This document shows, piece by piece, positions 9,288-45,125 of a DNA stretch of 48,202 nt. How positions within the stretch are numbered: position 1 is the stretch's first letter; each line of letters begins with the position of its first letter. Both the position numbers and the translations under genes were made by a program. The notes beneath the pieces are model-generated. The model saw nothing but the letters and a program-made list of their open reading frames with translations, did not search any database and was not told where the DNA came from. Source of the DNA: Candidatus Limnocylindrales bacterium (GTDB lineage Bacteria; Vulcanimicrobiota; Vulcanimicrobiia; Vulcanimicrobiales; Vulcanimicrobiaceae); NCBI GenBank assembly GCA_035488115.1, contig DATHLN010000136.1, forward strand, positions 1 to 48,202. The letters run 5' to 3'.

Positions 9288-10934
9288 ATGACGGGCTTTC
9301 GTATCGCGAGCGCGGCCTTTGCCGTGGCGCTCGGCTTCGGTTCGGCCGCTTCGGCGCAGGTGCTTCCTCCGGGCGCTCCGGCGCCGGCCGGCGCCGCTAG
9401 CGCGCTGACGGCCGCGCAGGTCGCCGCGATCGACAAGATCGCCGCGACGGTTATCGAGCGCAAGGCGACGCCGTCGGTCGCGATCGGCGTCGCCAAGAAC
9501 GGGCGGCTGATCTTCGCCAAGGCGTACGGCTACCGGAATCTCGACGACCGCGTCCCGGCCGACGCCGAGACGATGTACGGGATCGGCTCGAACACCAAGC
9601 AGTTCACCGCCGCGGCGATCATGATGCTGCGCGACCAAGGGAAGATCGACGTCGACGCGCCGGTCTCGCGGTATCTGCCCGGGATCCCGCACGGCGGCGA
9701 GGTGAAGATTCGCAACCTGCTCACCCACACCGGCGGCTACGCGGAGTACACGGAGCTGCCCGACATCGACATGATCGGTGCGCGCCCCGCGACGAATCAG
9801 GAGATCCTCGACAGCGTCGTGAGCCGTCCGCTCGGGTTCAAGCCCGGCACGAAGTGGCAGTACTCGAACACCGGGTACGTGATGCTCGCGACGATCGTCG
9901 AGAAGCTCTCGGGGATGAGCTATCCCGAGTTCCTGCGCACGAAGATCTTCGAGCCGCTCGGAATGACGCGCACGCATTTCGGCGATGAACAGCTCGTCGA
10001 GACCGATCGCGCGACCGGCTACACCCGCTTCGCGATGGGCGAGCAAGAGCACGAGCAGCATCTCGATTACTCGTGGTTCTCCGGCGCGGGCGCGATCGAG
10101 AGCACGCTCGCCGACATGGAGCGATGGAACGACGCCATCGATCGGGGTTCGCTGCTCTCCGCGTCCTCGCGCGAGATGATGCACACCTCGTTCAAGCTCG
10201 CCGACGGCAGCGACACGAGCTACGGATTCGGCCTGTTTCTGCGGACGCTGCCCGGCGGAAAGCATGTCGTGCTCCACGGCGGAGATACGACCGGCTTCGG
10301 GACGCAGGACGCGCGCTTCGTCGAGGACGGCATCGACGTGATCGTCCTGACGAATCAGGAGCCGGCCTCGTACAATGCCGTCCTGAACGCGGTGTACGGC
10401 GCGATCGTGGCTGCGCCGCCGCGGCCGCTGCCGACGTCGACGCCCGCGCCGACCGGCCCGGCTCCCGCGACCGCCGCGAACCCCGCGCCCGCGCAGCCCG
10501 CGGTCCCGGCCGCGACGCCCTCGGCCGGACCGTCCGCTTCACCGACGCCGATCCCGTATGCGAAGCCCGAGGTCGACGCGCTCGCGCGCCGCTGGCTCGA
10601 CGACGCGATCGTCGGCAAGATCGACCTCACGAAGCTGAGCGCCGGCTCGCGCGCCTCGCTGCGGCTGCCGCGCTACCAGGCGGCGCTTCGCGACCTGGCC
10701 CGGTTCGGGCCGCGCACCTACCGGCTGGTCAACGTCGACCGGCGCGCTCCGAGCTCGTCGTACCAGTACCTCATGCTCACGCCGACGCGGACGCTGATCT
10801 ACATCTTCGGGATCGACGACGACGGGCTGATCTCCGGCGGCGACGTCTTCGACCCGAACCCGCTCGCGCCGGACCGGCCGGCCGCTCCCCCGGCCGCCAC
10901 GTCGCCCGCACCCTCGCCGAGCCCGTCACCGTAA
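9288..10934 (+). CDS. Secreted serine hydrolase (class C beta-lactamase/AmpC-like family) with Pro/Ala linker and extra C-terminal domain
   Basis: GSNTK (SxxK), LLTHTGG, YSN and HGG motifs; signal peptide from MTGFRIAS. Confidence 0.88.
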   Translation: MTGFRIASAAFAVALGFGSAASAQVLPPGAPAPAGAASALTAAQVAAIDKIAATVIERKATPSVAIGVAKNGRLIFAKAYGYRNLDDRVPADAETMYGIGSNTKQFTAAAIMMLRDQGKIDVDAPVSRYLPGIPHGGEVKIRNLLTHTGGYAEYTELPDIDMIGARPATNQEILDSVVSRPLGFKPGTKWQYSNTGYVMLATIVEKLSGMSYPEFLRTKIFEPLGMTRTHFGDEQLVETDRATGYTRFAMGEQEHEQHLDYSWFSGAGAIESTLADMERWNDAIDRGSLLSASSREMMHTSFKLADGSDTSYGFGLFLRTLPGGKHVVLHGGDTTGFGTQDARFVEDGIDVIVLTNQEPASYNAVLNAVYGAIVAAPPRPLPTSTPAPTGPAPATAANPAPAQPAVPAATPSAGPSASPTPIPYAKPEVDALARRWLDDAIVGKIDLTKLSAGSRASLRLPRYQAALRDLARFGPRTYRLVNVDRRAPSSSYQYLMLTPTRTLIYIFGIDDDGLISGGDVFDPNPLAPDRPAAPPAATSPAPSPSPSP

Positions 10935-24585: not shown

Positions 24586-24616
24586 GGCCCCGTACGGAAG
24601 TGCGGGGCCCTTTTTT
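24586..24616 (+). terminator. Intrinsic terminator after clpC
   Basis: ggccccgtac-ggaa-gtgcggggcc hairpin followed by T6. Confidence 0.85.
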
Positions 24617-24632
24617 GCCGAACACCGATAGG

Positions 24633-27600
24633 TTGACCCCGTACGCGCTTTGGCGGTCCCGCCTTCCGGCGGTGATCGGAACTTGGTTCGCACGTGACCT
24701 GACCCGCGCAGCGCTCGCCCTCGTGGACGGAGGGCGCGTCGTCTTGCGCTCGGTCGAACCGGGCCGCATCGAAGCGACGGTGAAAGACCGCGTCCCGGTC
24801 GCGACGTCGGTCGAGTGGGCGACCGGCACGGGCCCGCAGGCCTTGCGCGCGGTCTGCACCTGCGGTACGACCGGCGTTTGCGAGCACGTCGTCGCGACGC
24901 TGGAGGTCGTGCGCAGCGCCGAGGAGGCGTCGTTGCCCGAGGCGACCGGGGAGAACGGCGAGGCCGAGCTCGCCTGGCTTCCGGACGCGGAGCAGGATGC
25001 CGCCCGCGCCCGCGCCCGCGCGGTCTGGCCGGTGCTCGCGCTCGGAAACGGCGGCTCGCTGACCGGGACGCTGTACCTCGACACGCCGCGCTTGCGCGGC
25101 GTGATCCGCGATGCCGACGCGATCCTCGCGATGATGGACCAGACGCCGCCCGACGACTGGGACGACGTCGACCGCACGCTGCTGCGCGACGACGCGGTGC
25201 AGGAAGCGTTCGGCTCACGGTCGTCCTCGAAGGCGCTGGCGCGGGCGATGTTCCGGCTGGCGCGGCATCCGCGGCTGCGGTTCGACGACGCGCCCGGCGA
25301 GAACCGGCATCCCTCGGAGCTCGCGCCGTTCGCGGTCGAGACGCGCGGCGTGAAACTCCGCGCGGAGCGCGTCGGCTCACGGTTCGTCCCGGCGCTCGAG
25401 GCGCCGGACGGTGCGCGCGTCTCGCCGGCGGACGCGGCCATCGTTGAAGGGCCACCGGCATGGGTCGTCATGGGCCGGACCGCGTATCTGCTCGACGGAA
25501 CGTTCGATCCGCGCAAGGTGATCGCGGCCTCGCGCGCGGCGACGAACGGTGCCGCGCCGGCCGACGACGGCGGAATGCCGACGGTGCGCGCGATCGCGCG
25601 CGTCGCGCCGTTCCTGACCGACCGCGAGCGCGCCGGCCTCGGCGTCGTCGACGCGGAGCGCCCGGCGCTGATCGTGCGCGCGGCCTGGCGCGAAGGCGCG
25701 CTGCTCGCGCGCGTCGCGTTCGTCGACCGCGCGACCGGCGCGCACGCGCCGTTCGGCGCACAGGGCGCGGTGAGCGCGAGCGCCGGGCGCTTCGTGCGCT
25801 GGGCGCCCGAGGTCGCACGCGGCTTCGCCCGCCGCTTCTTGGAAGCGGGGTTCGTACCGCGCGGCACGGACGGATTCGCGCTGCACGACGCCGACCGCGC
25901 CGCGGAGATCGTGCGCACCGTCTGGCCGTCGTGGGACGACACCGAGGTGCGTCTCGACGAATCGCTCGCCGCGCTCGCTGGCGGCGGCAAGGTGGACGTC
26001 TCGGTCAGCGCGACCGCCGCCGAAACCGGCGACTGGTTCGACCTCGACGTCTCGGTGTTCGTCGGCGGCGGCGAACCGCTCACGCGCGAAGAATTGCGCG
26101 CGCTCCTCGGCGCAAAAGGCCGCTACGCGGAAGTGCGCGGCAAGCTGGTCGACGTCGGCGACTTGCGTTCGCGGCAGAACTTGTTGTCGGAGCTGACCGA
26201 CCGCCGCCGCACGGGACTCGCATCGCTCGTCGCGATGCGCGACGAATTGCACGAAGCGTTCGGTGACGTCGCATTACCGGAAGAAGTCGAAAAGATTCGC
26301 GAGCGTTTGCGCAACTTCGAAGGCATTGAAGAAGTTGAACCTCCTGAGGTGTTGCAAAACGTTTTGCGCGACTATCAGCGTCGCGGTTTAGACTTCTTGT
26401 CGTACTTGTCGTCGTTCCGCTTCGGCGGAATTTTGGCTGACGACATGGGCGTCGGTAAGGCCGCCCCCCTACACAACCGTGCCATTACGCCGCGCGGTGT
26501 GCGCCGATTCGGCGATTTGCAAGTCGGCGATGAAGTGATGGGCCGCGACGGCCTTCCGCACAAAATCGTCGGCGTTTACCCGCAAGGTATACTTCCCGCT
26601 TTCCGCATCACGTTCAGCGACGGTTCCTCAACGCTGTGCTCTGATGATCATCTCTGGGCAGTGAACTCGGCAGTTCGCAAGAAGCGCGGCCTGCCATATC
26701 GCGTACTCAGCACGGCGCAAATTCGCGAGCGGTTGCACGATGCGGCCGGAAACGCCCGCCACTACATACCAATCGCGGACCCGATGCACTTCGGACAGCG
26801 CCCGAAGCTTCCAATAGACCCGTATTTGCTCGGCTGTATCCTTGGCGATGGTGGAATCACCGCCCGCAACAGTCTTTCGTTCACCACCGCGGATACCGAG
26901 TTGCTCGAAGAATGCCGATCATTACTGCCGACCGGCTCAGATTTCTTCGCAGTCAAAGACCGACCGTATAAATTCCGGATTGGGAGCGTGGTGCGCGGTA
27001 GACGCGCGCTCCTTGACGCCCTCGACGAGCTGGATTTGGTTGGTCTTGGTTCGTCGATGAAGTTCGTGCCGTCTGTGTATAAGACGGCATCTCTTCGGGA
27101 CCGTCTCTCCCTTCTTCAGGGTCTTCTCGACACGGACGGCACAACGCAGCCCCAAAACGGGAATGTCGAATTTACGTCGACCTCGGATCAACTTGCGCAG
27201 GATGTCGCGTGGATCGTCCAATCGTTGGGTGGGATAGCGCGCATGCGCTACAAGGCGCAGCCGAAGTACATGTACAAGGGCGAGCAGCGGATCGGTAAGC
27301 CGGCGTACCGAGTCGGGATCTCGCTGCCACCGGAATTCGCGCCATTTCGCTTGGCGAGAAAAATGGCGCGCTACACGCCGCGGTCGAAGTATCTTCCGAC
27401 GCGCGCCATCGTGAGTGTTGAGTACGAGCAAGACTGTGAGATGATGTGCATTGCGGTCAATGCGCCCGATAAGCTGTTCCTCCTCGACGACTTCATTGTC
27501 ACGCACAATACGGTGCAGGTAATCGCGCACGTGCTGCGGCGGAAGGAGCACGAGGGCGAAGTTCCTGTGCTCGTGATCGCGCCGACGTCGGTGACGCACA

Positions 27601-28817
27601 CGTGGGACAACGAGATCAAGAAGTTTGCGCCGTCATTACGCACGCTTCGGCTACAGTCGGGGAGCGATCGGGCGGCGAAGTACGACACGATCCACGACTA
27701 CGACGTCGTGATCACGTCGTATGCGCTCGCGCGGCTCGATGCGCATCAGCTCGAGCGGTTCCGCTTTCGGACGCTGGTCCTCGACGAGGCGCAGAACGCA
27801 AAGAACCCCGCCTCGCAGATCGCCAAGGTCGTGCGCGGTTTGCAGGCGGATCACCGGCTTGCGCTGACCGGTACGCCGGTCGAGAACTCGCTGCGCGATC
27901 TGTGGGCGATCTTCGGGTTCGTCGAGCCGGGGCTGCTCGGGTCGGAGACCTCGTTCCGGCGGCGGTTCGAGCTGCCGATCGCGGACGGCGACGAAGGCGC
28001 GGCCGCGGCGCTGCGTTCACGGCTCGAGCCGTTCCTGCTGCGGCGGACCAAGGAAGACGTCGCGCGCGAGCTGCCGGAGCGCACGGAGGCCGTGATCGAG
28101 TGCGAGCTCACGCCGCTGCAGCGGCGGCTGTACCGCGGGATCGCGGAGGCCGCGCGGCGCGACGTGCTCGCGAAGTACGACGAAGAAGGCGCCGAAGCGG
28201 CGACCGTCCACGTGCTCGCCGCGCTGACACGGCTGCGGCAAGTCTGCGCCCACCCCGGCTTGCTGGTGCCCGAGTATCTCGAGGATCCCGAGGCGAGCGG
28301 GAAGTTCGACGCGTTCATCGAGACGGTCGAAGAAGTCCTCGACGGCGGTCACAAGGTGCTCGTGTTCAGCGCGTTCGCCTCGATGCTGCGCATCATGCGC
28401 ACCGCGCTCGAACGCAAGCAGATCGCGTACGGCTATCTCGACGGCTCGACCAAGGACCGCGACCGCCAGGCCGAAGTCGACCGCTTCATGGCAGACGGCG
28501 GTCCGCCGGTGTTCCTGTGCTCGCTCAAAGCGGGCGGCGTCGGGCTGACGCTCACCGCGGCGGACTATGTCGTGCTGTACGACCCGTGGTGGAATCCCGC
28601 GGTCGAACGTCAGGCGATCGACCGCACCCACCGCATCGGTCAGACGCGCCCGGTCACCGCGTACCGCATGGTCACCGCCGGATCGGTCGAGGAGAAGATT
28701 CGCGCGCTCGCCGAGCGGAAGACGGCGCTCTCGAAGGCCGTTGTCAAGGCCGACAGCGCGGTTGCGAAGACGCTCACACGTGAAGACCTCGCCTTCCTGT
28801 TCAGCGATCCGGAGTAG
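24633..28817 (+). CDS. SWIM zinc finger SNF2/DEAH helicase containing an intein
   Basis: CTC...CEH (SWIM), LRDYQ, LADDMGVGK|T, LDEAQ, LTGTPVEN, LKAGGVGL and QAIDRTHRIGQ; start codon uncertain. Confidence 0.92.
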   Translation: MTPYALWRSRLPAVIGTWFARDLTRAALALVDGGRVVLRSVEPGRIEATVKDRVPVATSVEWATGTGPQALRAVCTCGTTGVCEHVVATLEVVRSAEEASLPEATGENGEAELAWLPDAEQDAARARARAVWPVLALGNGGSLTGTLYLDTPRLRGVIRDADAILAMMDQTPPDDWDDVDRTLLRDDAVQEAFGSRSSSKALARAMFRLARHPRLRFDDAPGENRHPSELAPFAVETRGVKLRAERVGSRFVPALEAPDGARVSPADAAIVEGPPAWVVMGRTAYLLDGTFDPRKVIAASRAATNGAAPADDGGMPTVRAIARVAPFLTDRERAGLGVVDAERPALIVRAAWREGALLARVAFVDRATGAHAPFGAQGAVSASAGRFVRWAPEVARGFARRFLEAGFVPRGTDGFALHDADRAAEIVRTVWPSWDDTEVRLDESLAALAGGGKVDVSVSATAAETGDWFDLDVSVFVGGGEPLTREELRALLGAKGRYAEVRGKLVDVGDLRSRQNLLSELTDRRRTGLASLVAMRDELHEAFGDVALPEEVEKIRERLRNFEGIEEVEPPEVLQNVLRDYQRRGLDFLSYLSSFRFGGILADDMGVGKAAPLHNRAITPRGVRRFGDLQVGDEVMGRDGLPHKIVGVYPQGILPAFRITFSDGSSTLCSDDHLWAVNSAVRKKRGLPYRVLSTAQIRERLHDAAGNARHYIPIADPMHFGQRPKLPIDPYLLGCILGDGGITARNSLSFTTADTELLEECRSLLPTGSDFFAVKDRPYKFRIGSVVRGRRALLDALDELDLVGLGSSMKFVPSVYKTASLRDRLSLLQGLLDTDGTTQPQNGNVEFTSTSDQLAQDVAWIVQSLGGIARMRYKAQPKYMYKGEQRIGKPAYRVGISLPPEFAPFRLARKMARYTPRSKYLPTRAIVSVEYEQDCEMMCIAVNAPDKLFLLDDFIVTHNTVQVIAHVLRRKEHEGEVPVLVIAPTSVTHTWDNEIKKFAPSLRTLRLQSGSDRAAKYDTIHDYDVVITSYALARLDAHQLERFRFRTLVLDEAQNAKNPASQIAKVVRGLQADHRLALTGTPVENSLRDLWAIFGFVEPGLLGSETSFRRRFELPIADGDEGAAAALRSRLEPFLLRRTKEDVARELPERTEAVIECELTPLQRRLYRGIAEAARRDVLAKYDEEGAEAATVHVLAALTRLRQVCAHPGLLVPEYLEDPEASGKFDAFIETVEEVLDGGHKVLVFSAFASMLRIMRTALERKQIAYGYLDGSTKDRDRQAEVDRFMADGGPPVFLCSLKAGGVGLTLTAADYVVLYDPWWNPAVERQAIDRTHRIGQTRPVTAYRMVTAGSVEEKIRALAERKTALSKAVVKADSAVAKTLTREDLAFLFSDPE
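26460..27509 (+). mobile_element. 350-aa class 3 intein with LAGLIDADG homing endonuclease, inserted in Walker A (GK|T)
   Basis: Begins with Ala after MGVGK and ends VTHN before Thr. Block B SDDHLW, block F MMCIAV, LAGLIDADG motifs LGCILGDG and LQGLLDTDG; lower GC than host. Confidence 0.93.
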
Positions 28818-29833: not shown

Positions 29834-30628
29834 TCAGGACGGTCGCGGCGCGGGCGGCGCGGGCGGGGGCACCGGCGCCGCCGGCGTCCCCGGCGTACGG
29901 TCGCGCATCTCGCGCTGGATGTCGCGCAGCTCGCGCTCGACCTCGCGGAGCCGCTGCTCGAGATCGGGGCGCGCCGTGAACGGCTGCACGTACAGCGGAC
30001 GGAAGGTTTGTGCGTTGCGCAGCGCGCGCAGCGCCCGTTCCATCTCGGCCGAGACGATCGGCGAGGGGATCACGATCGGATGCGCCTGCAGGTCGCGGAG
30101 CGCGCGCTCGACGTCGCGCGAGATGACCGGCGCCGGGATCGCCGGCGGGTTGATGAAGACGCCGCGCAGCCGGCCCTCGGCGTACGAGAGCGGCATCTCG
30201 CGCAGATCGCAGCCCGTGCAGCCGCGCAGGAAGCGCTTGTAGTCGGCGCCGACGATGCTGCGCGCGTCGAGCCGGACGCCTTCCATCACGACGCCCTCGG
30301 TCTTCGCGCGGGCGAACGAGGTGTTGCGGAAGCGAACGCCGGTGAAGCGCGCGTTGCGCAGGTCGGCGTCGTCGAACTTCGCGTCCTCGAGGTCCGCGCC
30401 GACGAACGAGGCGCCGTTCAGGTTCGCGCGGGAGAGGTCGACGCCGCGCAGGTCGGCGCCGACGAAGTGCAGACCGTGCAGGTCGCGGCCGCGGAGATCG
30501 TGCGGGAAACGGCAGCCGGCGCACGAGTTCACCAGCTGGCGGACGAGATCGTCCTCGGCGCTCGCGGGCGCGCCGGGCGGCAGAACGAGCAGCGCGAAAG
30601 CCGCGATCAGAACGAGACGGCGGAGCAT
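29834..30628 (-). CDS. Secreted pentapeptide-repeat protein with CxxC motifs and divergent coiled-coil/Pro-rich tail
   Basis: Signal peptide; CAGC and CTGC; A(D/N)Lxx repeats. Confidence 0.85.
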   Translation of the reverse strand: MLRRLVLIAAFALLVLPPGAPASAEDDLVRQLVNSCAGCRFPHDLRGRDLHGLHFVGADLRGVDLSRANLNGASFVGADLEDAKFDDADLRNARFTGVRFRNTSFARAKTEGVVMEGVRLDARSIVGADYKRFLRGCTGCDLREMPLSYAEGRLRGVFINPPAIPAPVISRDVERALRDLQAHPIVIPSPIVSAEMERALRALRNAQTFRPLYVQPFTARPDLEQRLREVERELRDIQREMRDRTPGTPAAPVPPPAPPAPRPS

Positions 30629-30644
30629 GATGGGGTCCTTTCTC

Positions 30645-31526
30645 TCAGGCGGGGGCCAGCGCGCCGGTGAGGTCGGCGTGGCCGTATTCGACCAGCTCCT
30701 GGCGCGTTACGGTGCGGCACGAGCGCGGCGCCGTGTCGCGGTCGTCGCGCCGATCTTCGCGGTTGCAGTAGCGCGCGGCGCGGAAGTCGATCCCGTGCAG
30801 GTCGACACCGCGCAGATCGGTGCAGACGGTGCGCCGGTTGGTGTCGTCGTAGTAGCCGTCACGTGCCTGCGTGCACAGGATCGCATCGCCGATCGTCGCG
30901 CCCGCGAGCTTCGCGCCGCGCAGGCTGGCGCCGACCAGATCGGCGCCGCGCAGGTCCACGCGCGAGAGGTCGGCATCGCGCGCGCTCATCCCGACCAGCC
31001 GGGCGTCGTTGAGGTGCGCGCCGGCGAGCTTCGCGTCCCGCAGGCTCGCGCCGACGAGCTTGCTGCCGCGAAGATCGGCGTCGTGCAGATCGATCCCGTG
31101 GAGCGAGCAGCCGGTGCAGTCGCGCAGGATGATCCGTCCGGCCGCACCGTCGACGTCCGCCTGCGAGACGCTGGCGCCGACGAACGTGATCCCGTCGGTG
31201 TTCGCGCGAGCGAACGTCGTGTGCCGAAGCCGCACGCCGACGAAGCGCGCGTTGCGCAGATCGGCGCCGTCGAAGCGCGTTCCGTCGAGGTTCGCGCCGG
31301 TGAACTCCGCGTCGCGCAGATTCGCATTGGAGAGATCGACGTCGCGCAGATCGCTGCCGACGAAGCGCAGCCCGTGCAGGTCGCGGCCGTGCAGATCCTT
31401 CGGCAGCCGGCAGCCGACGCACGAGTTGATCAGCTGCCGTGCGAGGTCGTCGTCGGCCGCGACCGCCGGCGCGGACGGTGCGGCGAGGGCGAGCGCCAGA
31501 GCGGCGAGGGCGAGAGAACGGATCAC
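30645..31526 (-). CDS. Secreted pentapeptide-repeat protein with CxxC motifs
   Basis: AGGAGG RBS; signal peptide; CVGC and CTGC; ADL/ANL/ARF repeats. Confidence 0.88.
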   Translation of the reverse strand: MIRSLALAALALALAAPSAPAVAADDDLARQLINSCVGCRLPKDLHGRDLHGLRFVGSDLRDVDLSNANLRDAEFTGANLDGTRFDGADLRNARFVGVRLRHTTFARANTDGITFVGASVSQADVDGAAGRIILRDCTGCSLHGIDLHDADLRGSKLVGASLRDAKLAGAHLNDARLVGMSARDADLSRVDLRGADLVGASLRGAKLAGATIGDAILCTQARDGYYDDTNRRTVCTDLRGVDLHGIDFRAARYCNREDRRDDRDTAPRSCRTVTRQELVEYGHADLTGALAPA

Positions 31527-31543
31527 GACGAGCCTCCTTGGTG

Positions 31544-31559
31544 AACTAACGAAATAAGA
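31544..31559. promoter_or_regulatory. Candidate BlaI-family operator
   Basis: aactaacgaaataaga has the same AACTAA-N4-WTAAGA form as 34785-34800; AT-rich in a ~70% GC context. Confidence 0.55.
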
Positions 31560-31589
31560 CTTAAGAGCAAAAAAGAAGAGCGGGCGGCA

Positions 31590-34367
31590 TCAGCCGTCCA
31601 GCCCGCTGCTTCCGGTCATGGTCATCCCGGCGGTGTGCGCGCCGTGCAGCTCCACGCCGGCGAGGTTGCAGCCCTCGAAGCGCGCGTTGGTGAGGTTCGC
31701 GCCGGACAAGTTCGAGCCGGTCAGGTCGACGCCGCTGAAGCGCACGCCCGAGAGGTTCGCCTCGCGCAGATCGGAGTGACTGAGGTCGGCGCCGCTCAGC
31801 GTGATCCCGTGCAGGTCCTGACCGTGCAGGTCGAGGTGCGAGAGATCGCAGCCGGTGCAGTTCGCGAGCACGCTGCGCAACGCCGTGCCGCGCAGGCTCA
31901 TGCTGCGCACCGAGACGCCGTTCAGCCTGATCCCTTCGAGGTTCGCGCCGTCGAGGTTCGCATTGCGCATCTCGGTGCCGTTGAGCTGCGCGTTGCGCAG
32001 GTCGGCCCGCATCAGGTTGGCACGGGCCAGCGACACGCCGGTCAGCTGCGCACCGGAGAAGTTCACGCCGCGCAGGTCCGCGTCGTTGAAGTTCGCGCCG
32101 TTCAGCAGCAGCCCGTGGAGGTCTTGGCCGTGCAGATCGAGCTTCGCGAAGTCGCAGCCGGTGCAGCTGGCGATCAAGCTGCGGAGCGTCGTGCCGCGCA
32201 GGCTGACGTGCTGGACCGAGGCGCCGATCAACTTGATCCCGTCGAGCTGCGCGTTGTCGAAGTTCGCCTCGCGCAGGTCGACGCCGTTCAGCTCGGCGTT
32301 GCGCAGGTCCGCACCCGAGAGGTTCGCACCGCGCAGCGAGACGCCGAGGAGCTGCGCGCCGCTCAGATTCGCGCCGCGCAGGTCCGCGCCGGAGAGATCG
32401 TCGCCGTTGATCTTCAGACCGTGCAGGTCGACGTTGCGCAGATCGGCGCCGTGCAGCGAGCACGCCATGCACGAGGCGACCAGCTCGCGCGAGAGCTTCA
32501 CGCCGGCGACCCGGGTGCGGTTCGACCACGTCGACTCTTGCGCGATTTGCGCCGGCATCGAGCCCATCGCGATCTTCATCGCTTTCGCGACCTCGGGCCC
32601 GATCTCGACGGTCTCGTGGGTCCGCTTGGCCCGCGCGAGCGCGTTCTCGGCGGCGCTGGTCAGCTTGGCGATCTGCTGCGGCGTCAGCGGCGGAACGTCA
32701 TGCGGGAAGATGACGTACCGCGTCCCATTGGGCGGCAGCTCGGGGATGCTCGGTGCCACAGGGACCCCAGCGTTCGCGCCGGGCGGCGCGGGCGGCGGCG
32801 GAGCCACCGTCCCCGATCCGGTCGAGACGGTCGTGCCGCGGGCCGTGAGTGCGTCGTGCGCGCTCGCGTCGTGCGACGCGAGGCTGCGCGAACCGGTGGA
32901 TTGCGAGGCCGACGCCTCGCCGGCGTACTTCGAGCCGCGCGACGGGCTCTCGTGCGAGCGCGGCGCAACGGTCGGCATCGGGACGAGCTGGAAGTTCACC
33001 GTCTTCGGCTCGAGGACCGCGACCTGGCGCGTGTCGCTCGCTCGGAGATCGGTCTGCTGATTACCGCGCGCGACGGCGGACGATGCGGGGTGCGAGATTT
33101 TCGTATGCGCGCTGCGGACGGCCGCCGCATGCCACGTCACCGGCGCGGCCGCGTTCACGGTAGCCGCGCCGGCCGGCGCTTCCGCAACCGCGGGCAGCTC
33201 GACGGCGGGGGCGCTCGTCGCGACGACGGCGACCGCGAGGACGCTCGCGACCGCGACGCCGAGCGCGGCGAGCGGCGAGCGGTGCAGGCGTGCGCGCTTC
33301 TTGTCGAGCAGCTGCTCGATCCGGACGGTGATCTGCTTGCGCGTGAGCAGCGCTCCCGGCGCGACGACCGCGTGCTCCGGCATCCGCATCTCGCGCGCGA
33401 GCCGCCAGAGCGAGGTCGCATACGCGTGCGCTTCGCCGGTCTTCTCGACGACCGCGTCGTCGGAGGCGATCTCGCGCTCGAGCGCGATCCGGCGCCCGAC
33501 CATCCAGACGATCGGGTTGAACCAGAAGATCCGCTCGATGACGCGCTGCACGAGGTTCGTCCAGTCGTCGTAGCGCCGCAGGTGCGCGTGCTCGTGCAGC
33601 ACCAGCTGCTCGATTGCGGCGAGGCCGTCGGCGGTCGCGAGCTCGGTCGGGATCAAGATCACGGGACGGCGGAAGCCGATCGCGACCGGCGTCTCGATCT
33701 CGAAGGAGAGGCGCAGGTAGATCTCGCGGCCGGGGCCGATCTCGGTGAGCCACGGCAGCTCGTCGGCGAGGGTGCCGTCGAGCGGGCTCGAGCGCCGCTT
33801 GAGACCGCGCACCCGAGCGATGCTCGCCGCCAGACCGATCAGACCGATGAGCGCGCCGAGCACCCACACGCCGACGACGCCGATCGCGAGGTTGCGCGAC
33901 ATGCGCGGCGTCCAGCGGATCACCGGCAGCCGGTCGAGCAGCGACGGACCGCCGAGCGCGATCGGCTGGTACGCGGCGCGGTTTGCCGCCGCAGACAAAC
34001 GCTGCGGAGCGGCGCCGGTGCCGCGAACCTCGTGCCGAGCTGCGCGGCGCTGCATCGCGGTCGTCTCGGCCGCGGAGCGGGCCGGCGCGGCGAGGGTCGC
34101 CGCGCCGGTCGCCGGTGCAGCATCCGGCGCCGGCGCGGAGGTGGTGGCGGCCGGAGCGGCCGCGGTTGCGCGGGCGATGGAGACGCCGATCCCCGCGAGC
34201 GGCATCAGCGCCGTCGCGAGCAAAGCCGTGGTCCACAGCGCGTGCCTCGAGGAAGCGGTCAGGTTCAGCGTGCGCGTCGCCACGAGGACGAGCGCCGCGA
34301 GCACGCCGCCTAGGACGACGCTCGCGAGGATCGCGCGGAGCGCGACGCCGACGACCGCCTCGATCAT
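31590..34367 (-). CDS. BlaR1-like M56 metallopeptidase fused to C-terminal CxxC/pentapeptide-repeat domain
   Basis: TM segments, LHEHAH (HExxH), FWFNP and EREIASD; low-complexity linker, then three CxxC-capped pentapeptide blocks. Confidence 0.9.
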   Translation of the reverse strand: MIEAVVGVALRAILASVVLGGVLAALVLVATRTLNLTASSRHALWTTALLATALMPLAGIGVSIARATAAAPAATTSAPAPDAAPATGAATLAAPARSAAETTAMQRRAARHEVRGTGAAPQRLSAAANRAAYQPIALGGPSLLDRLPVIRWTPRMSRNLAIGVVGVWVLGALIGLIGLAASIARVRGLKRRSSPLDGTLADELPWLTEIGPGREIYLRLSFEIETPVAIGFRRPVILIPTELATADGLAAIEQLVLHEHAHLRRYDDWTNLVQRVIERIFWFNPIVWMVGRRIALEREIASDDAVVEKTGEAHAYATSLWRLAREMRMPEHAVVAPGALLTRKQITVRIEQLLDKKRARLHRSPLAALGVAVASVLAVAVVATSAPAVELPAVAEAPAGAATVNAAAPVTWHAAAVRSAHTKISHPASSAVARGNQQTDLRASDTRQVAVLEPKTVNFQLVPMPTVAPRSHESPSRGSKYAGEASASQSTGSRSLASHDASAHDALTARGTTVSTGSGTVAPPPPAPPGANAGVPVAPSIPELPPNGTRYVIFPHDVPPLTPQQIAKLTSAAENALARAKRTHETVEIGPEVAKAMKIAMGSMPAQIAQESTWSNRTRVAGVKLSRELVASCMACSLHGADLRNVDLHGLKINGDDLSGADLRGANLSGAQLLGVSLRGANLSGADLRNAELNGVDLREANFDNAQLDGIKLIGASVQHVSLRGTTLRSLIASCTGCDFAKLDLHGQDLHGLLLNGANFNDADLRGVNFSGAQLTGVSLARANLMRADLRNAQLNGTEMRNANLDGANLEGIRLNGVSVRSMSLRGTALRSVLANCTGCDLSHLDLHGQDLHGITLSGADLSHSDLREANLSGVRFSGVDLTGSNLSGANLTNARFEGCNLAGVELHGAHTAGMTMTGSSGLDG

Positions 34368-34751
34368 CTACTGCTGCCCTTTCGCCTTGTCGAGAAGCTC
34401 GCGGAGCCGGTCCAGCTCCGCATCATCTACTGCCTCGGACTCGAGAAGATTCAGCACGAGCTCGCGAGGCGAGCCGTCGAAGAAGCGCGAGAGAACGTGG
34501 CTGACCACGCTGCGCTGTGCCTCGTCACGCGCGACGACGGCGCGGTAGATGAAGGCGCGCCCGGCCGCTTTGTGGCGGACGTAGCCTTTCTGCTCGAGGA
34601 TACGCATGGTGGTGAGGACGGTGTTGTACGCGAGCGGCGGATCGCCGATCGCGTCGACGACATCAGCGACGCTCGACTCGCAACGGTCCCAGAGGACTTG
34701 CATGAGGCGGTACTCCGCCTCCGTGAGGGTCGGCGACTTCTTGCGGGGCAT
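34368..34751 (-). CDS. BlaI/MecI/CopY family transcriptional repressor
   Basis: LTEAEYRLMQVLW, LAYNTVLT...LEQKG, GRAFIY and FFDGS. Confidence 0.93.
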   Translation of the reverse strand: MPRKKSPTLTEAEYRLMQVLWDRCESSVADVVDAIGDPPLAYNTVLTTMRILEQKGYVRHKAAGRAFIYRAVVARDEAQRSVVSHVLSRFFDGSPRELVLNLLESEAVDDAELDRLRELLDKAKGQQ

Positions 34752-36978: not shown

Positions 36979-37974
36979 GTGGCGGAGGAACGGGCCGAAC
37001 CCAAAGTCGTCCTCCTCGTCCGGCTGCTCAGCGCAATCGACGAGGGGCGCTTCACGTTCGAGGAGCTCAAGGATCAGATCGCGGACGAGAAGCCGCCCAG
37101 CACGCGAACGCTGCGGCGCTATCTGAGCGTCCTCGCCGACGCGGGTTTTCCGTGGTTTTTCGACCGCGCGAGCGGGACGTACCGGTTCGCCGACGGCTAC
37201 AGCCTGCGCCGATTGAACCTTTCGCACCGGGAATTACAGGGACTCGTGACCCTGAAGCGCTTGGGCTCCTCGCTCGGTCCGGCGCTTGCGACGGCGATCG
37301 AGGAGACGACGCAGAAGCTGCTGCGCTCCAGCGACCGCCGGACCGAGGTCTCGATCGAGAGCAGCTCGCTGGCGATTCGGCTGGAGCCGGTCGCGATGGA
37401 CGCGGCGGCGGAGCGCGCGTTCGAGCAGCTGCAGAGTGCCGAGCGCGACCGAAGGCGCGTGCAGTTCGGCTACACGGACAAGAAGGGCGCGCGGACGCAG
37501 CGGCGCGTCGACCCGTACGGCTTCATCGTCTCGGGCGGGCGGGTCTACCTGGTCGGCTACGACCACAACCGCACCGACATGCGCGTCTTCGCGGTCGACA
37601 ACGTCTCCGACGTCGCGGTGACGCCGCAGAAGTACGAGAAGCCGGCCGATTTCAACCTCGAGGCGTACGGTGCCGACTCGGTGAGCGGCGTCGTTCACGG
37701 CGACGCGGTGACCGACGTGACGGTACGTTTCTCGCCGGTCGTCGCGAAGGCGGCGGCCGCGTCGAGCACGACGCGCGAGCGCCGGGTCGAGCCGCGCGAC
37801 GACGGCGGCGTCGACATCACGTACCGCGTCGCGGACCCGCTCGAGATCGTGCGGATGTCGCTCGGCTGGGGAGCCGAGGCGGAAGTGATCGCGCCCGAGG
37901 AGGCGCGCCGCGCCGCCGCCGAGATCGCGCGCGAGGTCGCGGCGCGCTACGCCGTCCCGCGCGGTTCCGCCTGA
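36979..37974 (+). CDS. HTH-WYL-WCX transcriptional regulator (PafB/PafC-like)
   Basis: N-terminal HTH (STRTLRRYLSVL), RRVDPYG...VYLVGYD...RVFAVDNV (WYL) and GWGAEAEVIAPEE (WCX). Confidence 0.9.
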   Translation: MAEERAEPKVVLLVRLLSAIDEGRFTFEELKDQIADEKPPSTRTLRRYLSVLADAGFPWFFDRASGTYRFADGYSLRRLNLSHRELQGLVTLKRLGSSLGPALATAIEETTQKLLRSSDRRTEVSIESSSLAIRLEPVAMDAAAERAFEQLQSAERDRRRVQFGYTDKKGARTQRRVDPYGFIVSGGRVYLVGYDHNRTDMRVFAVDNVSDVAVTPQKYEKPADFNLEAYGADSVSGVVHGDAVTDVTVRFSPVVAKAAAASSTTRERRVEPRDDGGVDITYRVADPLEIVRMSLGWGAEAEVIAPEEARRAAAEIAREVAARYAVPRGSA

Positions 37975-38018: not shown

Positions 38019-38534
38019 ATGACGCGCTCGATGAAGCTCTTCGTCGCCCTCGCCGCCGCCGCCGCGTTATCGTGCGGCGCGGCCGCGCGCGCGGCCGTCC
38101 CCGCGGGCCAGCCCGTCGACGGGATCCGTTGCGACCAGATGGAGGGCTCGCTGATGCACATCCACCAGCACTTGCGGATCCTCGATCACGGCAAGCCGGT
38201 CGCGATTCCCGACGACATCGGCCGCCCGATGATCGGCCAGTGCTTCTACTGGATCCACACGCACACGCCCGACGGCATCATCCACATCGAGTCGCCGAGC
38301 TTCAAGACGTTCACGCTCGGCAACTTCTTCGACGTCTGGGGCGAGCCGCTGACGAAAACCGACGTCGCCGGCGCGCGCCCGAAAAAGAACGAGCGCATCA
38401 TGGTCTGGGTGAACGGCAACCGTTACAACGGCGACCCTCGCGCGATCCAGCTGACGCAACATCTCGACGCGACGATCGAGGTCGGCCCACCGTATTCCAG
38501 GCCCGCGCCGTTCACCGCGTGGAACGGCAACTGA
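38019..38534 (+). CDS. Hypothetical secreted His-rich protein
   Basis: Signal peptide; HIHQHL, YWIHTHTPDGIIHIES and FTLGNFFDVWG. Confidence 0.8.
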   Translation: MTRSMKLFVALAAAAALSCGAAARAAVPAGQPVDGIRCDQMEGSLMHIHQHLRILDHGKPVAIPDDIGRPMIGQCFYWIHTHTPDGIIHIESPSFKTFTLGNFFDVWGEPLTKTDVAGARPKKNERIMVWVNGNRYNGDPRAIQLTQHLDATIEVGPPYSRPAPFTAWNGN

Positions 38535-38557
38535 GGTAGCGTGATCGACGTACCGGC

Positions 38558-38640
38558 TGCGGCGCATCCTTCGACAAGCTCAGGATGACATTGCGGACGG
38601 GGGCGATGCCATTTTGCGGAAAGCCGCGATGACATTGCGG
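38558..38640. repeat. REP-like repeat followed by two degenerate tandem half-copies
   Basis: 36-mer tgcggcgcatccttcgacaagctcaggatgacattg (34/36 identical to 43036-43071). gatgacattgcgg occurs at 38584 and 38628, with a variant at 38605. Confidence 0.85.
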
Positions 38641-38643
38641 TTT

Positions 38644-38857
38644 AGACGCGACGAAGCCGCGGGGCGTGGGCGCCGTCGCGGCTTCGTTTTCTCGCGCGAG
38701 ATCGAGGGAGGCGCGACTTCTCGCTGATCGGCTCAGCCAGGAGGGCGTCATAGTCGTTTCGGTGTTGTGATCGCATCCGTCGGGCTTGCGCCTTCCGTGT
38801 CTACGTTCGTTTCACCGGCGAGCTTCTCGCCGCTCGCCGCCGGCTCGTCACCGGCGT
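38644..38857 (-). ncRNA. Putative structured ncRNA, copy 1
   Basis: Own promoter upstream; hairpin ggcgagc-ggcgagaa-gctcgcc; ggc-GCAA-gcc tetraloop; terminal hairpin homologous to copies 2 and 3. Ends approximate. Confidence 0.65.
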
Positions 38858-38863
38858 GCACGC

Positions 38864-38892
38864 ATCATAAAATCAAAGAAACCGGGTTGCAA
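38864..38892 (-). promoter_or_regulatory. sigma70-type promoter TTGCAA-17-TATGAT
   Basis: Near-consensus hexamers with 17 nt spacing; same position relative to the RNA in all three copies. Confidence 0.75.
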
Positions 38893-38999
38893 TACCCTCA
38901 AACCCAACATCCACAAGAAATTCGAGTTGTGCCCCAATCTTCACAACCAATCCCTGCTTTTCACACCCAAACCTTCGTCGCATTGAGAACATAGTGCCA

Positions 39000-39146
39000 G
39001 GGATGGGCGACACGCGGGGGGTTCGCGGGGTGCTTTCGTAGGCGCGCAGCCCTGGAAGGGCGGGAGCGCCGAAGAACGCAGCGACCGTAGCGCATGGATG
39101 CGCGGAGGGAGCGTGCCCAGCGAACCCCCTGCGTGTCGCCCATCCC
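39000..39146. repeat. Hairpin/MITE-like element E2: 27-bp inverted repeat (one mismatch, G-U compatible) around a core homologous to E1
   Basis: Arms at 39000-39026 and 39120-39146; core 39058-39114 aligns with 797-856. Confidence 0.85.
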
Positions 39147-39161
39147 CGCCACCCTGCGTTC

Positions 39162-39376
39162 AAACGCGACGAAACCGCCCAAATTTCTCTGGTCGGTTTC
39201 GGTCAGCACGAGAATCCGATCTGCGAGCGTCCTCGCCGCCTTTCGGCGGCCATTACGTCGTCGAACTTCGAGTCGATGCTTCTCTCTTGAACGCGCCCGG
39301 CTTGCACCGTTCGCATTCCGATCTGTCCGCATCAGCGAGCTTCTCGCCGCTCGCCCGTCGTCGTTGCCGTCGACGT
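39162..39376 (-). ncRNA. Putative structured ncRNA, copy 2
   Basis: GCAA and GAAA tetraloop hairpins; GCGAGAA-loop hairpin; 3' half clearly homologous to copy 3; terminal hairpin followed by Ts. Confidence 0.7.
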
Positions 39377-39382
39377 GTTCAC

Positions 39383-39412
39383 ATCATACGTGCACCACCG
39401 TACACCGCGCAA
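39383..39412 (-). promoter_or_regulatory. sigma70-type promoter TTGCGC-18-TATGAT
   Basis: Homologous to 38864-38892, including the flanking gcaataccc. Confidence 0.7.
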
Positions 39413-39521
39413 TACCCCAACGCCCCGAAACGCCGCTTCTCCACAAGAACTTTCACTTTTCCACGATGTTCCGCAGCATTCCACGCTTTCCACATGCACC
39501 GATGCATCCGCGCGACGCGCG

Positions 39522-39698
39522 AAAAGCGACGAGGCCGCCCAGGTTTCCCCGTGCGGCCTCGTCAGCGTGAGAATCGATCTGCGCGTGTCCTCGCCGATTC
39601 ATCGTCGGCCAAGACGGCGTCGAACTCGCCTCGATGCCTCGTCGCCTCGGCACCGGTGAGCTTCTCGCGGGCTCACCCGCCTTCGTCGCCTCCGGCGT
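39522..39698 (-). ncRNA. Putative structured ncRNA, copy 3 (shorter)
   Basis: ggtgagc-ccgcgagaa-gctcacc hairpin with a compensatory change; terminator gacgaggccgc...gcggcctcgtc-gctttt. Confidence 0.7.
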
Positions 39699-39704
39699 GG
39701 ACGC

Positions 39705-39733
39705 ATCATAGTTCGACTCGCGGCGCGGCGCAA
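39705..39733 (-). promoter_or_regulatory. sigma70-type promoter TTGCGC-17-TATGAT
   Basis: Same hexamers and position as in the other two copies. Confidence 0.7.
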
Positions 39734-39807
39734 GGGGTTCAGGCCGGATCGTTACGCAGCCTGACAAATCCGGAGTTATCCACCGTGTTCGCGAATCGTT
39801 CGCGATG

Positions 39808-40551
39808 TCACCCGCCGAGGTACGCCGCGACGACGTCGCGGTGCGTCGCGAGCTCGGCGCCCGTCCCGGTCAGGACGATCCGCCCGCGCTCCATGACGTA
39901 GGCGCGGTCGGCGAGCGCGAGGGCGCGGCGCGCATTCTGCTCGACGAGCAAAATGGACGTCCCGCGAGCCCGCTCGTCGGCGACGATGGCGAAGATCTCG
40001 TCGACCAGCTTCGGCGCGAGCCCCATCGAGGGCTCGTCGAGGAGCAGGGCGCGGGGCCCGATCGCCAGCGCGCGCGCGATCGCGAGCATCTGCTGCTCGC
40101 CGCCCGAGAGCGAGCCCGCCGGGACGTTGCGCCGCGCGCGCAGGATCGGGAAGCGGTCGAAGAGCCCGCCGATCCGCGCGTAGCCTTCGGATCCGCGCGC
40201 GCTCGCGGCGACCTGGAGGTTCTCCTCGACGCTCATCCCGGGGAGCATCCGGCGCCCTTCGGGGACGAGGACGAGGCCGAGCTTGACCCGCGCGTGCGAG
40301 GAGAGCCGGGTGATCTCGGCGCCGTCGAAGCGGACGTGCCCGCCGCGGATCGGGCGGACGCCGGCGAGCGCCATCAGCAGCGTCGTCTTCCCGGCGCCGT
40401 TCGCGCCGACGATCGCGCACAGCGTCCGCTCCTGCAGCTCGATCGAGACGTCGTGCAGCACCTCGATGTTCCCGTAGCCCGAGCGCAGCGAGTCGACCGC
40501 GAGCAGCGGTGCCGCCGCCGGCGCCGGAACGGGAGCCGGGACCGCGCTCAC
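39808..40551 (-). CDS. livF: ABC transporter ATPase (LivF-like)
   Basis: GANGAGKTT, LSGGEQQML, DEPSMGLAP and VEQN. Confidence 0.9.
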   Translation of the reverse strand: MSAVPAPVPAPAAAPLLAVDSLRSGYGNIEVLHDVSIELQERTLCAIVGANGAGKTTLLMALAGVRPIRGGHVRFDGAEITRLSSHARVKLGLVLVPEGRRMLPGMSVEENLQVAASARGSEGYARIGGLFDRFPILRARRNVPAGSLSGGEQQMLAIARALAIGPRALLLDEPSMGLAPKLVDEIFAIVADERARGTSILLVEQNARRALALADRAYVMERGRIVLTGTGAELATHRDVVAAYLGG

Positions 40552-43113: not shown

Positions 43114-44250
43114 TCAGTGAAAATACGTGAATCCGCCCTTGACGATCGAGAGGATCACCGGGCTCGACTTGGCGTCGCGGTTGCTGTCGAAGCCGATCGG
43201 GCCGAGGACCGTCTGGATCGAGCGGACGTTCTTGAGCGCCGAGAGCATCTCGTCTTTGTTCGTCGCGCCGCCCTTGACGAGCGCGGCGACGATCTGCGCG
43301 GCCGCGTACGACTGCGCCGCGAACTGGTCGGGGCCTTTCCCGTACTTCGCGGTGTAGTGCTTCACGAACTCGACGTTCGAGGGATACTTCGCGCCCGAGT
43401 ACCAAGCCGCGCCGACGACCGTCCCTTGCGCTGCCGGACCCGCCACGCTGTACATGTCGGGCGCGTTCAAGCCGTTGCCGCCGATCATGTGCGTCTTGAT
43501 CCCGAGCTTCCCGGCCTGCTGGATGATCTTCGTCGCCTCGGGGAAGAGCGCGCCGATCGCGATCACGTCGGGGTGCTTCGACTCGATCCGCGTGAGCGCG
43601 GGCTGGAAGTCGGTGTCCTTGATGTGGAACGTCTCGGTGTCGACGACGTCGACGCCGGCGGCCTTCAGCTCGCGGGCGAAGATGTCGCCGTCGGTCTTGG
43701 TGAAGGCGTTGTCGTCGCCGTAGATGATCGCCGCGGTCTTGTAGTGCCACTTGTCGTGCGTGCGCTTCACCGTGGTCGGGATCACCTGCGACTCGGCGAG
43801 CGAGTCGCGGTAGACGGTCGGCCCGATCGCCGTCACGCCTTCGGCCGTCGTCGAGGTTCCCATCACCGGGAAGTTCGCGTTCTTTGCAATCGGGAAGGCT
43901 TTGAACGCTTCGCCCGAGAGCGTCGGGCCGAGCACGATCGGCGTCTGCCCGTCGGTGGTGAACTTCTGCATCAGGTTGACGACCTGGGCGCCGTCGGTCG
44001 CCGCGTCCTGGACGTCGAAGACCAAGTCCGCGCCGCCCGCGTCGATCTTGCCGGACTTGACGTCCTCGTTGGCGAGCTCGTACGCGTTCTTCTGCGGGGT
44101 GCCGTAGACGCCGGCGGCGCCGGTGACGTCGGCGATCACGCCGACGTGCACGTGCTTGCCGGCCGCCGGTCCTCTCGGTGCTGCGCTCGACGGCGCGACG
44201 AGCGCGGCGAGCGCGACGAGCGCGAGCGCCGAGACCGTGAATCGGTTCAT
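43114..44250 (-). CDS. Branched-chain amino acid ABC substrate-binding protein (LivK/J-like)
   Basis: Sec signal; GVIADVTG, LGPTLS, DTDFQ and PDQFAAQSY; GGAG RBS and ATGA overlap support the start at 44250. Confidence 0.88.
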   Translation of the reverse strand: MNRFTVSALALVALAALVAPSSAAPRGPAAGKHVHVGVIADVTGAAGVYGTPQKNAYELANEDVKSGKIDAGGADLVFDVQDAATDGAQVVNLMQKFTTDGQTPIVLGPTLSGEAFKAFPIAKNANFPVMGTSTTAEGVTAIGPTVYRDSLAESQVIPTTVKRTHDKWHYKTAAIIYGDDNAFTKTDGDIFARELKAAGVDVVDTETFHIKDTDFQPALTRIESKHPDVIAIGALFPEATKIIQQAGKLGIKTHMIGGNGLNAPDMYSVAGPAAQGTVVGAAWYSGAKYPSNVEFVKHYTAKYGKGPDQFAAQSYAAAQIVAALVKGGATNKDEMLSALKNVRSIQTVLGPIGFDSNRDAKSSPVILSIVKGGFTYFH

Positions 44251-45050
44251 CCTGTACTCCATGAGTCGTGTGAGCTGGCTAAGTACGGGCGGAGCGCCCG
44301 CATGAACGCCCCGAAGCGCAGGTCGTTCTCCTCACTGCTCGGGAGTTCCGTGTAGACGACGACGATCCAGCGCGATCCGTCGTGCAGCGTCAGGATCCCG
44401 CCGTCGTGCGCGCACTCGTCGGTGTCGCCCGTCTTGTGGGCGAAGGCGTCCCCTGCGTCGAGACCGCGCGACAGCTTCACGTCCCACCACGACGTCGCGA
44501 GGATCCGCCGCAGCGCGGCCGCGTCGGGGACGCGATCCTCCGCGATCGCCGCGAAGAGCTCCGCCGCTTCGCGCGCCGGAAACGTGTTCCGGCCGCTCGC
44601 CTCGGGGTCGTCGATCAGCGGCAGCGAACCCGAGAGCTTCCGGCGGAAGACCGTCTCGGTGAAGCCGAGCGCGTGCACGTCCGCGGTCGCGCGCTCGCGC
44701 CCCAGGACGTCGTAGAGCTGGTTGGTCGCGACGTTGTCCGAGCGCTGGAGCATCAGCGTGATGAGCTCCTCGACCGTCGTCTCGTAGCCGGGGACCATCG
44801 GCGAGGGCGCATCGTTGACGGTCGCGTTCCGCGCGTCGACGGTGACCCGGGTGTCCCAGCGCAGCCGGCCTTCCGTCATGGCGACGGCCGCGGCGACCGC
44901 CAGCGGGACCTTGATCATCGAGGCCGGGTAGATCGGCCGCCCGTCGTCCCGGCTCCAGGCGGGACCGCCCGGGGCGAGGCTGCGGACGTGCATCTGCGAT
45001 TCGCCCAAGCCCGTTTGCTCGGCGAGCTCCGCTAGGTCGGGTCGGCGCAT
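44247..45050 (-). CDS. Class A beta-lactamase-like serine hydrolase (no signal peptide)
   Basis: PASMIK (SxxK), SDN and HKTG. Confidence 0.85.
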   Translation of the reverse strand: MRRPDLAELAEQTGLGESQMHVRSLAPGGPAWSRDDGRPIYPASMIKVPLAVAAAVAMTEGRLRWDTRVTVDARNATVNDAPSPMVPGYETTVEELITLMLQRSDNVATNQLYDVLGRERATADVHALGFTETVFRRKLSGSLPLIDDPEASGRNTFPAREAAELFAAIAEDRVPDAAALRRILATSWWDVKLSRGLDAGDAFAHKTGDTDECAHDGGILTLHDGSRWIVVVYTELPSSEENDLRFGAFMRALRPYLASSHDSWSTG

Positions 45051-45060
45051 ACCGGCGGTC

Positions 45061-45125
45061 TGCAAGCAGGTACTTGCACGAATCCAAGCGACCTGGTAAA
45101 GTGTTCATGCAAGTACCCGCACGCA
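45061..45125 (+). promoter_or_regulatory. Promoter TTGCAC-17-TAAAGT (extended -10) flanked by two related palindromic operators (45061-45078, 45108-45125), probably TetR sites
   Basis: tgcaag-caggta-cttgca overlaps -35; the second site matches its reverse complement at 15/18. Confidence 0.7.

Follow-up and report, generated by a model that had tools for sequence, protein, structure and literature searches.

The three tandem minus-strand RNA copies in the window (the whole 48,202-nt stretch of DNA analysed here) are members of a standalone noncoding RNA (ncRNA) family, 150-230 nt long, found in one order of Eremiobacterota (Vulcanimicrobiota). By its protein names, the source organism belongs in Ca. 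Eremiobacterota, close to Ca. Elarobacter. It is very likely that a functional ncRNA family exists. A multicopy standalone ncRNA with independent promoters had been proposed in the first-pass annotation, and this proposal is backed by covariation, promoter conservation, convergent downstream genes, inverted copies at two loci, and contigs from an RNA library. Three features go beyond that annotation: a pseudoknot that joins two of the motifs it had listed, a DnaA-box-like module upstream of the promoters, and a link to the gene of a WYL regulator.

As shown in Table 1, the array is flanked on one side by the end of a liv-type ABC operon and on the other by two convergent genes, and there is no sense-direction gene downstream. 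The sequence elements listed earlier on the minus strand are all where they had been placed, including the GCGAGAA loops (38824, 39341, and 39662), the (A/T)TCTC segments (38696, 39208, and 39567), and the terminal GCGGYYTCGTCGC (38648, 39166, and 39526). TTGC-N19/20-TATGAT occurs only five times in the whole 3.08 Mb draft genome. Three of these are the array promoters, and one of the remaining two immediately precedes the SRP RNA match. The promoter scoring within the terminator scan gave a score for the copy-1 promoter alone. All three copies fold better than their shuffled sequences (z-scores of -3.55, -4.20, and -3.61 for copies 1, 2, and 3), and in each the minus strand folds more strongly than the plus strand. 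The terminal hairpins are where they had been described and the T-run is clearest in copy 3, but the 3' T-runs of the three copies are weak and none of the three hairpins is listed on the minus strand by the terminator scan. The GCAA tetraloop hairpin is present and belongs to a variable domain, which is short or absent in some copies. No fourth copy was found by a three-copy profile search of the source genome (a draft, 65.9% complete).

Table 1. Positions of the RNA copies, their associated elements, and neighbouring genes in the window
Feature	Position	Strand	Description	Score
RNA copy 1	38644..38859	-	~215 nt, ends inferred	126.9 bits with own model R1
RNA copy 2	39162..39378	-	~215 nt, ends inferred	209.1 bits (R1)
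RNA copy 3	39522..39700	-	~178 nt, short P3 domain, clearest T-run	158.6 bits (R1)
Predicted sigma70-type promoter, copy 1	38864..38892	-	TTGCAA-17-TATGAT	
Predicted sigma70-type promoter, copy 2	39383..39412	-	18-nt spacer	
Predicted sigma70-type promoter, copy 3	39705..39733	-	17-nt spacer	
Candidate DnaA-box-like module upstream of copy 1	38907..38965	-	Main box 38907-38915; degenerate boxes at 38937 and 38957	
Candidate DnaA-box-like module upstream of copy 2	39437..39494	-	Boxes at 39437, 39457, 39477, and 39486; promoter-proximal two 20 bp apart	
Single DnaA-box-like 9-mer upstream of copy 3	39776..39784	-	Reduced module	
Predicted pseudoknot, copy 1	38696..38831	-	Loop 38824-38831 with 38696-38702	
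Predicted pseudoknot, copy 2	39208..39348	-	Loop 39341-39348 with 39208-39214	
Predicted pseudoknot, copy 3	39567..39669	-	Loop 39662-39669 with 39567-39573, one mismatch	
WYL-WCX transcription regulator (PafBC/YafY-like)	36979..37974	+	Convergent; order-wide synteny with the RNA	
171-aa conserved protein	38019..38534	+	Signal-peptide-like N-terminus; convergent here; often adjoins the RNA in relatives	
livF-like ABC ATPase	39808..40551	-	Last gene of upstream transporter operon; context only	
Palindromic repeat element, ~160 bp	38994..39152	.	Spacer between copies 2 and 1; outside the RNA family	

The window has other features of its own. The palindrome between copies 2 and 1 is near-perfect (fold of -115 kcal/mol), has related copies at 733-860 and on contig C110, and is found in many copies in genus relatives, often in array spacers; it is likely a MITE or REP-like element. 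A REP-like repeat is found at 38540-38640, and the draft genome has 94 occurrences of its core, TGTCATCCTGAGC. An SNF2-type helicase gene (24600-28817, plus strand) has an internal LAGLIDADG domain, likely an intein with a homing endonuclease. At 29834-34751 (minus strand), a BlaI-like repressor gene precedes that of a BlaR1-type M56 peptidase with fused pentapeptide repeats, after which come two further pentapeptide-repeat genes. Two beta-lactamase-fold genes exist (44247-45065, minus strand, and 8292-10934, plus strand), the evidence being a weak class A-like match far under the cut-off and a Pfam beta-lactamase match.

A DNA search of 60 relatives yields 30 loci including the source locus, with one to four copies per fetched locus; the 30 genomes of the genus together have 87 complete copies. 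Their mean pairwise identity is 67% in alignment A2, which has 86 genus copies (a copy cut at a contig end is omitted; one row is from the unpublished genome G033). The promoter is well kept: the -35 element starts with TTGC in 83 of the 87 copies, the spacer is 17 or 18 nt in 86, and the -10 element is TATGAT in 60. Wherever a locus extends far enough, livF is found upstream and convergent genes downstream. Two loci (L014 and L016) have one inverted copy each, indicating that the copies are independent units. No open reading frame is conserved among the copies, as had been noted: the most common start position is found in only 27 of 86 homologues. Paralogues cluster by array position and not by genome (the nearest neighbour is within the same locus for 4/86), and from their sequences they are vertically inherited. 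Two array copies with an internal deletion or a shortened body (L038 1150-1360 and L023 1275-1458, from genomes G020 and G016) are possible decaying paralogues.

The RNA consists of a 5' hairpin (P1), a hairpin (P2), a variable domain (P3), a long bulged helix (P4), and a terminal hairpin (P5). The P2 loop (GCGAGAA) pairs over a long range with the strand between P4 and P5 (the TCTC segment), forming a pseudoknot. In the 86 genus sequences, 93.1% of cells are paired and 39 of 56 pairs are changed on both sides; when partners are slid as a control, only 29-40% are paired. The pseudoknot (7 bp) is 97.2% paired, with two-sided change in five pairs. Since kinship among these sequences inflates covariation counts, distant forms provide the stronger evidence. 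In 17 diverged sequences (described below), 83.7% of cells are paired, 34 of 54 pairs have two-sided change, and the pseudoknot is 95.0% paired.

The pseudoknot is contained in neither covariance model used here (R1 and R2). Over 191 RNAs, its Watson-Crick run averages 5.39, versus 3.75 +/- 0.10 for shuffled partners, and pairing the loops of one type with the strands of the other gives runs of 2.4-3.1. Loop and strand change together and pairing is kept (e.g., GCGAGAA/TTCTCGC, ACGTAT/ATACGT, GTATC/GATAC, ACGTG/CACGT, and ACGCAT/ATGCGT). Of the 105 family-type copies, 23 have a short pseudoknot of 2-3 bp, and many of these are second paralogues. Invariant core positions of P4 are common to both types; few positions overall are invariant across the two. 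A MAFFT alignment of the two types together (A3) placed P3 and P4 wrongly and was set aside. A short distal P3 helix is only 39.8% paired on alignment A4 and is therefore unsupported in that register, and the pairings tried for the conserved 3' tail and 5' CAC gave no resolution.

A search of genomes with a model built from the copies, as had been suggested, recovers relatives with a covarying fold. Model R1 finds the RNA in three further genera, adjoining the WYL gene in every one. Downstream of 26 WYL orthologues, a much diverged RNA is found in 17, and model R2 was built from 17 such sequences. R2 matches 92 of 115 genomes of the family, 2 of 3 of the sister family, and 3 of 32 of a third family. 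Among these, matches in G061, G082, and G052 are within coding sequence and were dropped; that in G058 lacks the promoter module and was also dropped, as was that in G066, which was removed along with G061 of the same genus, its own sequence unread. Of the weak R1 matches (E 1e-4 to 0.05) in 60-odd genomes of the class, the eight inspected are coding sequence and were dropped as well. Among ten WYL-flanking regions from genomes with no model match, the RNA is found only in G038 (full) and G139 (partial, at a contig end). The final tally (R2 matches minus two in the family and three in the third family, plus 12 R1 genomes, G139, and G038) comes to about 103 of the 115 genomes of the family, all 3 of the sister family, and none of the 32 other genomes of the class. 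There is no match in other classes of the phylum. Note that the unpublished genome G161 is included in the R1, R2, and WYL tallies, and the unpublished G059 in the draws from the class; no conclusion rests on unpublished genomes.

A pattern scan of GTDB genomes gives at least 121 loci, and the named records that score are from Vulcanimicrobiota except three. These three, among the matches listed, are L168, L190, and L238, from Acidiferrales, Verrucomicrobiia, and Acidoferrum metagenome-assembled genomes, respectively, and we suspect them to be misbinned contigs. The genus and family models detect each other's type weakly (E 2.6e-6 for R1 on L075; E 1.1e-7 for R2 on L042). R2 gives E 0.002 on copy 2 of the window, and at E <= 1e-4 it detects none of nine genus genomes. 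The two types nevertheless appear to be one family because they have in common synteny, the promoter module, topology, and P2 and P4 core sequence.

Upstream of the -35 element, co-oriented 9-mers of the form TGTGGA(C/G/T)AA are found, which we take to be the DnaA box consensus in reverse complement. The density of 9-mers at most one mismatch away from TGTGGATAA is 4.38 per kb upstream of 90 copies versus 0.025 per kb in the genome, and all 67 such upstream 9-mers are on the RNA strand. In the genus, 64 of 86 copies have a spacing of 20 bp between their last two boxes. Of the 86, 44 have a main box whose start precedes the RNA by 66-67 nt, and in another 27 the distance is 55-58 nt, one helical turn closer. 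By the pattern used, three have no box. In the diverged type, the main box is 66-67 nt upstream in 73 of 83 anchored copies (of 105). 9-mers of the dnaA/oriC type thus keep a fixed phase relative to the promoter.

These 9-mers also flank dnaA in each of the five genomes examined, including the gap between dnaA and dnaN, although this comparison is partly circular because the boxes near dnaA were chosen with the same pattern. The region upstream of dnaA is the densest box cluster of the source genome. The boxes of the window array are degenerate and outside the 15 densest clusters. In four near-complete genomes (G020, G133, G120, and G030), 1.25-1.4 Mb separate the locus from dnaA, which rules out the array as the replication origin (oriC). 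At several places in one of these (G020, contig C1), exact DnaA-box-like 9-mers repeat as pairs with a 1455-bp spacing, which suggests an insertion element in multiple copies carrying boxes.

The module accompanies the RNA elsewhere in the genome. Many genomes have unlinked second copies that keep it, with OPT transporter/nadA, yqeY/HIT, or infA as neighbours, and some of these copies lie ahead of a same-strand gene. In G153 and G125, the only RNA copy (L139 and L140) is flanked by a miaB-like radical SAM gene and by mutS, whose strand it shares, and its box module is modified. Across 301 genomes of the phylum (the unpublished G059, G273, G278, G286, and G301 included), the box pair is found one to five times in most family genomes, with a reversed control near zero. 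It is at RNA genes wherever positions were compared, and other classes are at the level of the reversed control. Nine family genomes have no credible RNA match, and where inspected they lack the promoter-linked module. Judging from these sequences, the boxes probably bind DnaA. Bound DnaA would activate rather than repress the promoter, given the position of the main box near -62, which is presumably that of a class I activator.

The WYL regulator gene of the window encodes an HTH-WYL-WCX protein (Pfam WYL and WCX). Its orthologue is found in 113 of 115 family genomes, 3 of 3 in the sister family, and 0 of 32 in the third family, and in 31 of the 32 best-scoring loci it is no more than 1.5 kb away from the RNA. 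The shared range can be explained by common ancestry. The gene is missing from the draft genome G119, which is 94% complete and has the RNA. It lies at a distance from second copies and from the copies of G153 and G125, and it is kept in several genera that have neither RNA nor module. PafBC, also a WYL protein, is reported to be activated by ssDNA and not by ssRNA in the available passages of PMC11804915. PafBC/DriD-type regulators share the HTH-WYL-WCX layout, with an Sm-like nucleic-acid-binding domain; they differ in being described there as a single gene responding to ssDNA, not ssRNA, with no ncRNA partner (PMC11804915). It is unlikely that the neighbouring WYL regulator is the partner of the RNA or in the same circuit. 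The other neighbour, the 171-aa protein, has His-rich motifs and no Pfam match, and its order relative to the RNA and WYL genes varies across the family. In one genome (L092/L093, G127:C6:325600-327600), the RNA and a truncated WYL gene form an exact inverted repeat near a contig end, which is either an assembly artefact or a real hairpin.

Signal from an RNA library is found in one soil metatranscriptome, in which 190 contigs of at least 97% likeness (155 of at least 99%) fall on the three RNA bodies and cover parts of each; the contigs carry no strand, ends, or level. For copy 3, a 120-nt contig piece (39571-39690) has no difference from the window. In run X1, summed contig depth is ~2.4e5 in the copy-2 bin, 2.8e3 in copy 1, 5.8e2 in copy 3, and 0-41 in flanking genes, and promoters and most spacers have no contig at 97%. 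Because these are contigs of one run, the depths are no measure of level, the missing cover is no evidence on ends, and neither is used as such.

As had been claimed, the RNA does not match known families. In Rfam 15 there is no match in the window, with only chance hairpins at E <= 10, and 16 diverged loci give three weak terminator-type matches. ARAGORN finds nothing in the window. tRNA, tmRNA, SRP RNA, and RNase P RNA are absent from the window; the last three are found elsewhere in five of five genomes including the source, which also has tRNAs elsewhere. Likenesses to group II intron domain 5, tmRNA, SRP helix 8, and T-box have no Rfam support. A riboswitch, T-box, or cis leader is rejected by the convergent genes at the main locus and by the inverted copies, even though some second copies precede a same-strand gene. 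No toxin peptide, toxin, reverse transcriptase, or nuclease is adjacent, which rejects type I or III toxin-antitoxin systems, retrons, and RNA-guided nucleases. Likewise, the guide-carrier role suggested earlier has no support from the scanned neighbours, among which there is no nuclease, transposase, or reverse transcriptase partner.

Among the closest known systems is raiA/ModT, which is also ~200 nt, standalone, and pseudoknotted, with variable peripheral stems on a conserved core, and which, according to the available passages, works in trans and occurs in complexes with protein, its function not known (PMC12968392, PMC11706538). However, raiA/ModT has a long P1 joining its 5' and 3' ends and two pseudoknots (PMC12968392). 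Here, the end hairpins are local, with no closing P1, and a single pseudoknot is seen, which sets the RNA apart from raiA/ModT. Those passages mention no DnaA-box module or tandem array. A further RNA of similar size is CcnA of Caulobacter crescentus, a 182-nt ncRNA in replication and cell-cycle control with weak DnaA boxes, as the accessible part of PMC8959179 describes. The RNA studied here is not described in the available portions of PMC10434106, and the terms Eremiobacter, Vulcanimicrob, WYL, and DnaA are all missing from the main text of PMC11109978. No description was found in the literature, leaving aside the motif tables in supplements to discovery papers. The RNA family is new. Its kind, an orphan structured ncRNA, is a known one until a function is established.

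In the explanation we prefer, DnaA bound at the phased upstream boxes would activate the sigma70-type promoters of the RNA genes. The compact RNA, having no conserved seed, reading frame, or enzyme partner, would work by binding protein, acting in trans as a scaffold or sponge. The activity of that protein would thereby follow the replication state of the cell, and paralogues with different box phasing and P3 domains would tune dose or partner. Of the four functions suggested in the first-pass annotation, scaffold or sponge appears the most likely. Protein binding is slightly favoured as the mode of action. The whole chain, a DnaA-activated, pseudoknotted, protein-binding RNA that couples protein activity to replication state, is tentative and falls a little short of being probable.

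The upstream repeats could instead bind a dedicated regulator, of OmpR type or the WYL protein itself, making the RNA an effector of a stress regulon that is not tied to replication. Direct repeats with a 10-11 bp period also fit OmpR-type regulators. The near-exclusive association of the 20-bp box pair with these RNA genes, the 11-bp period of TGTG repeats in the diverged type, and the adjacent WYL gene of the same range are consistent with this. We consider it unlikely, as the 9-mers are the same as those flanking dnaA, no such boxes are seen by eye upstream of the WYL genes, and WYL persists where module and RNA are gone. It is even more doubtful that an RNA switched on by DnaA oligomers is a ligand or decoy of a WYL DNA-damage regulator, i.e., an RNA replication checkpoint tuned by tandem paralogues with differing promoter phasing. 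An improbable reading is an RNA that binds RNA polymerase. Like Ms1 and 6S RNA, the RNA is standalone with conserved synteny (180-300 nt for these families), Ms1 also has short hairpins at both ends, and its homologues can lose all detectable sequence similarity, according to the available part of PMC9130861; the RNA also has two long irregular helices. Against this, neither consensus has a long 5'-3' closing helix with a central bubble, and the fold is closed by a pseudoknot. The genes are multicopy, there is no Rfam match, and the neighbours (WYL, livF, hutH-like, OPT, and nadA, among others) are not the HAD hydrolase and oxidoreductase of Ms1. In these respects the RNA departs from both 6S RNA and Ms1. 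A separate 6S-like RNA is found elsewhere in four of five genomes tested, the source genome not among them (84.6, 45.7, 43.1, and 28.6 bits; cut-off 46.4), exceeding the cut-off in one and being weak in a genus member.

Base pairing with a message, e.g., that of the convergent WYL gene, is suggested by the 17 of 26 WYL loci in which the RNA, encoded on the opposite strand, ends no further than ~400 nt from the WYL stop. Yet the RNA does not overlap coding sequence, its conserved loop is occupied by the pseudoknot, neither consensus has a long conserved single-stranded seed, and another gene is found between RNA and WYL in the genus of the window, all of which makes this distinctly improbable. 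The compact pseudoknotted fold with P4 core positions invariant in both types would also suit a ribozyme or a small-molecule-binding RNA acting in trans; this is very improbable, given no match to ribozyme or riboswitch families, the small number of invariant positions across types, and no consistently adjacent substrate or pathway gene. Selection might act on the DNA, the locus titrating or recycling DnaA like datA or DARS with the RNA secondary. Phased, co-oriented boxes so far from dnaA, multiplied in the genus, agree with such a role, but covariation of the RNA type, including a pseudoknot and many G-U pairs, and the fixed phase of the boxes to the RNA start, leave it little chance indeed. 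It is barely credible that the copies belong to a mobile or repetitive element (MITE/REP) or serve as a leader acting in cis. They are multicopy, their spacers have REP-like and palindromic repeats, and some second copies precede a same-strand gene. However, the locus is syntenic across the order, paralogues are apparently inherited vertically, and terminal inverted repeats are absent. A BLAST search of 50,697 phage and 72,556 plasmid records gives no match, none of five pattern matches in viral contigs scored, and no sense-strand gene follows at the main locus, where this reading is already contradicted.

Standalone complex bacterial RNAs of unknown function are rare, and the known ones, raiA/ModT and Ms1, proved to act on growth transitions. 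Since the range is one order, the generality of the family is limited. It offers concrete handles: a pseudoknot with two-sided changes, a promoter module whose phase is fixed, paralogues that have been kept, and a neighbouring gene that may encode the partner. It gives a widespread, little-studied soil lineage a first RNA marker specific to the order. If DnaA drives the RNA, this would be a direct link from the replication initiator to a structural RNA, of a kind not found in the literature searched.
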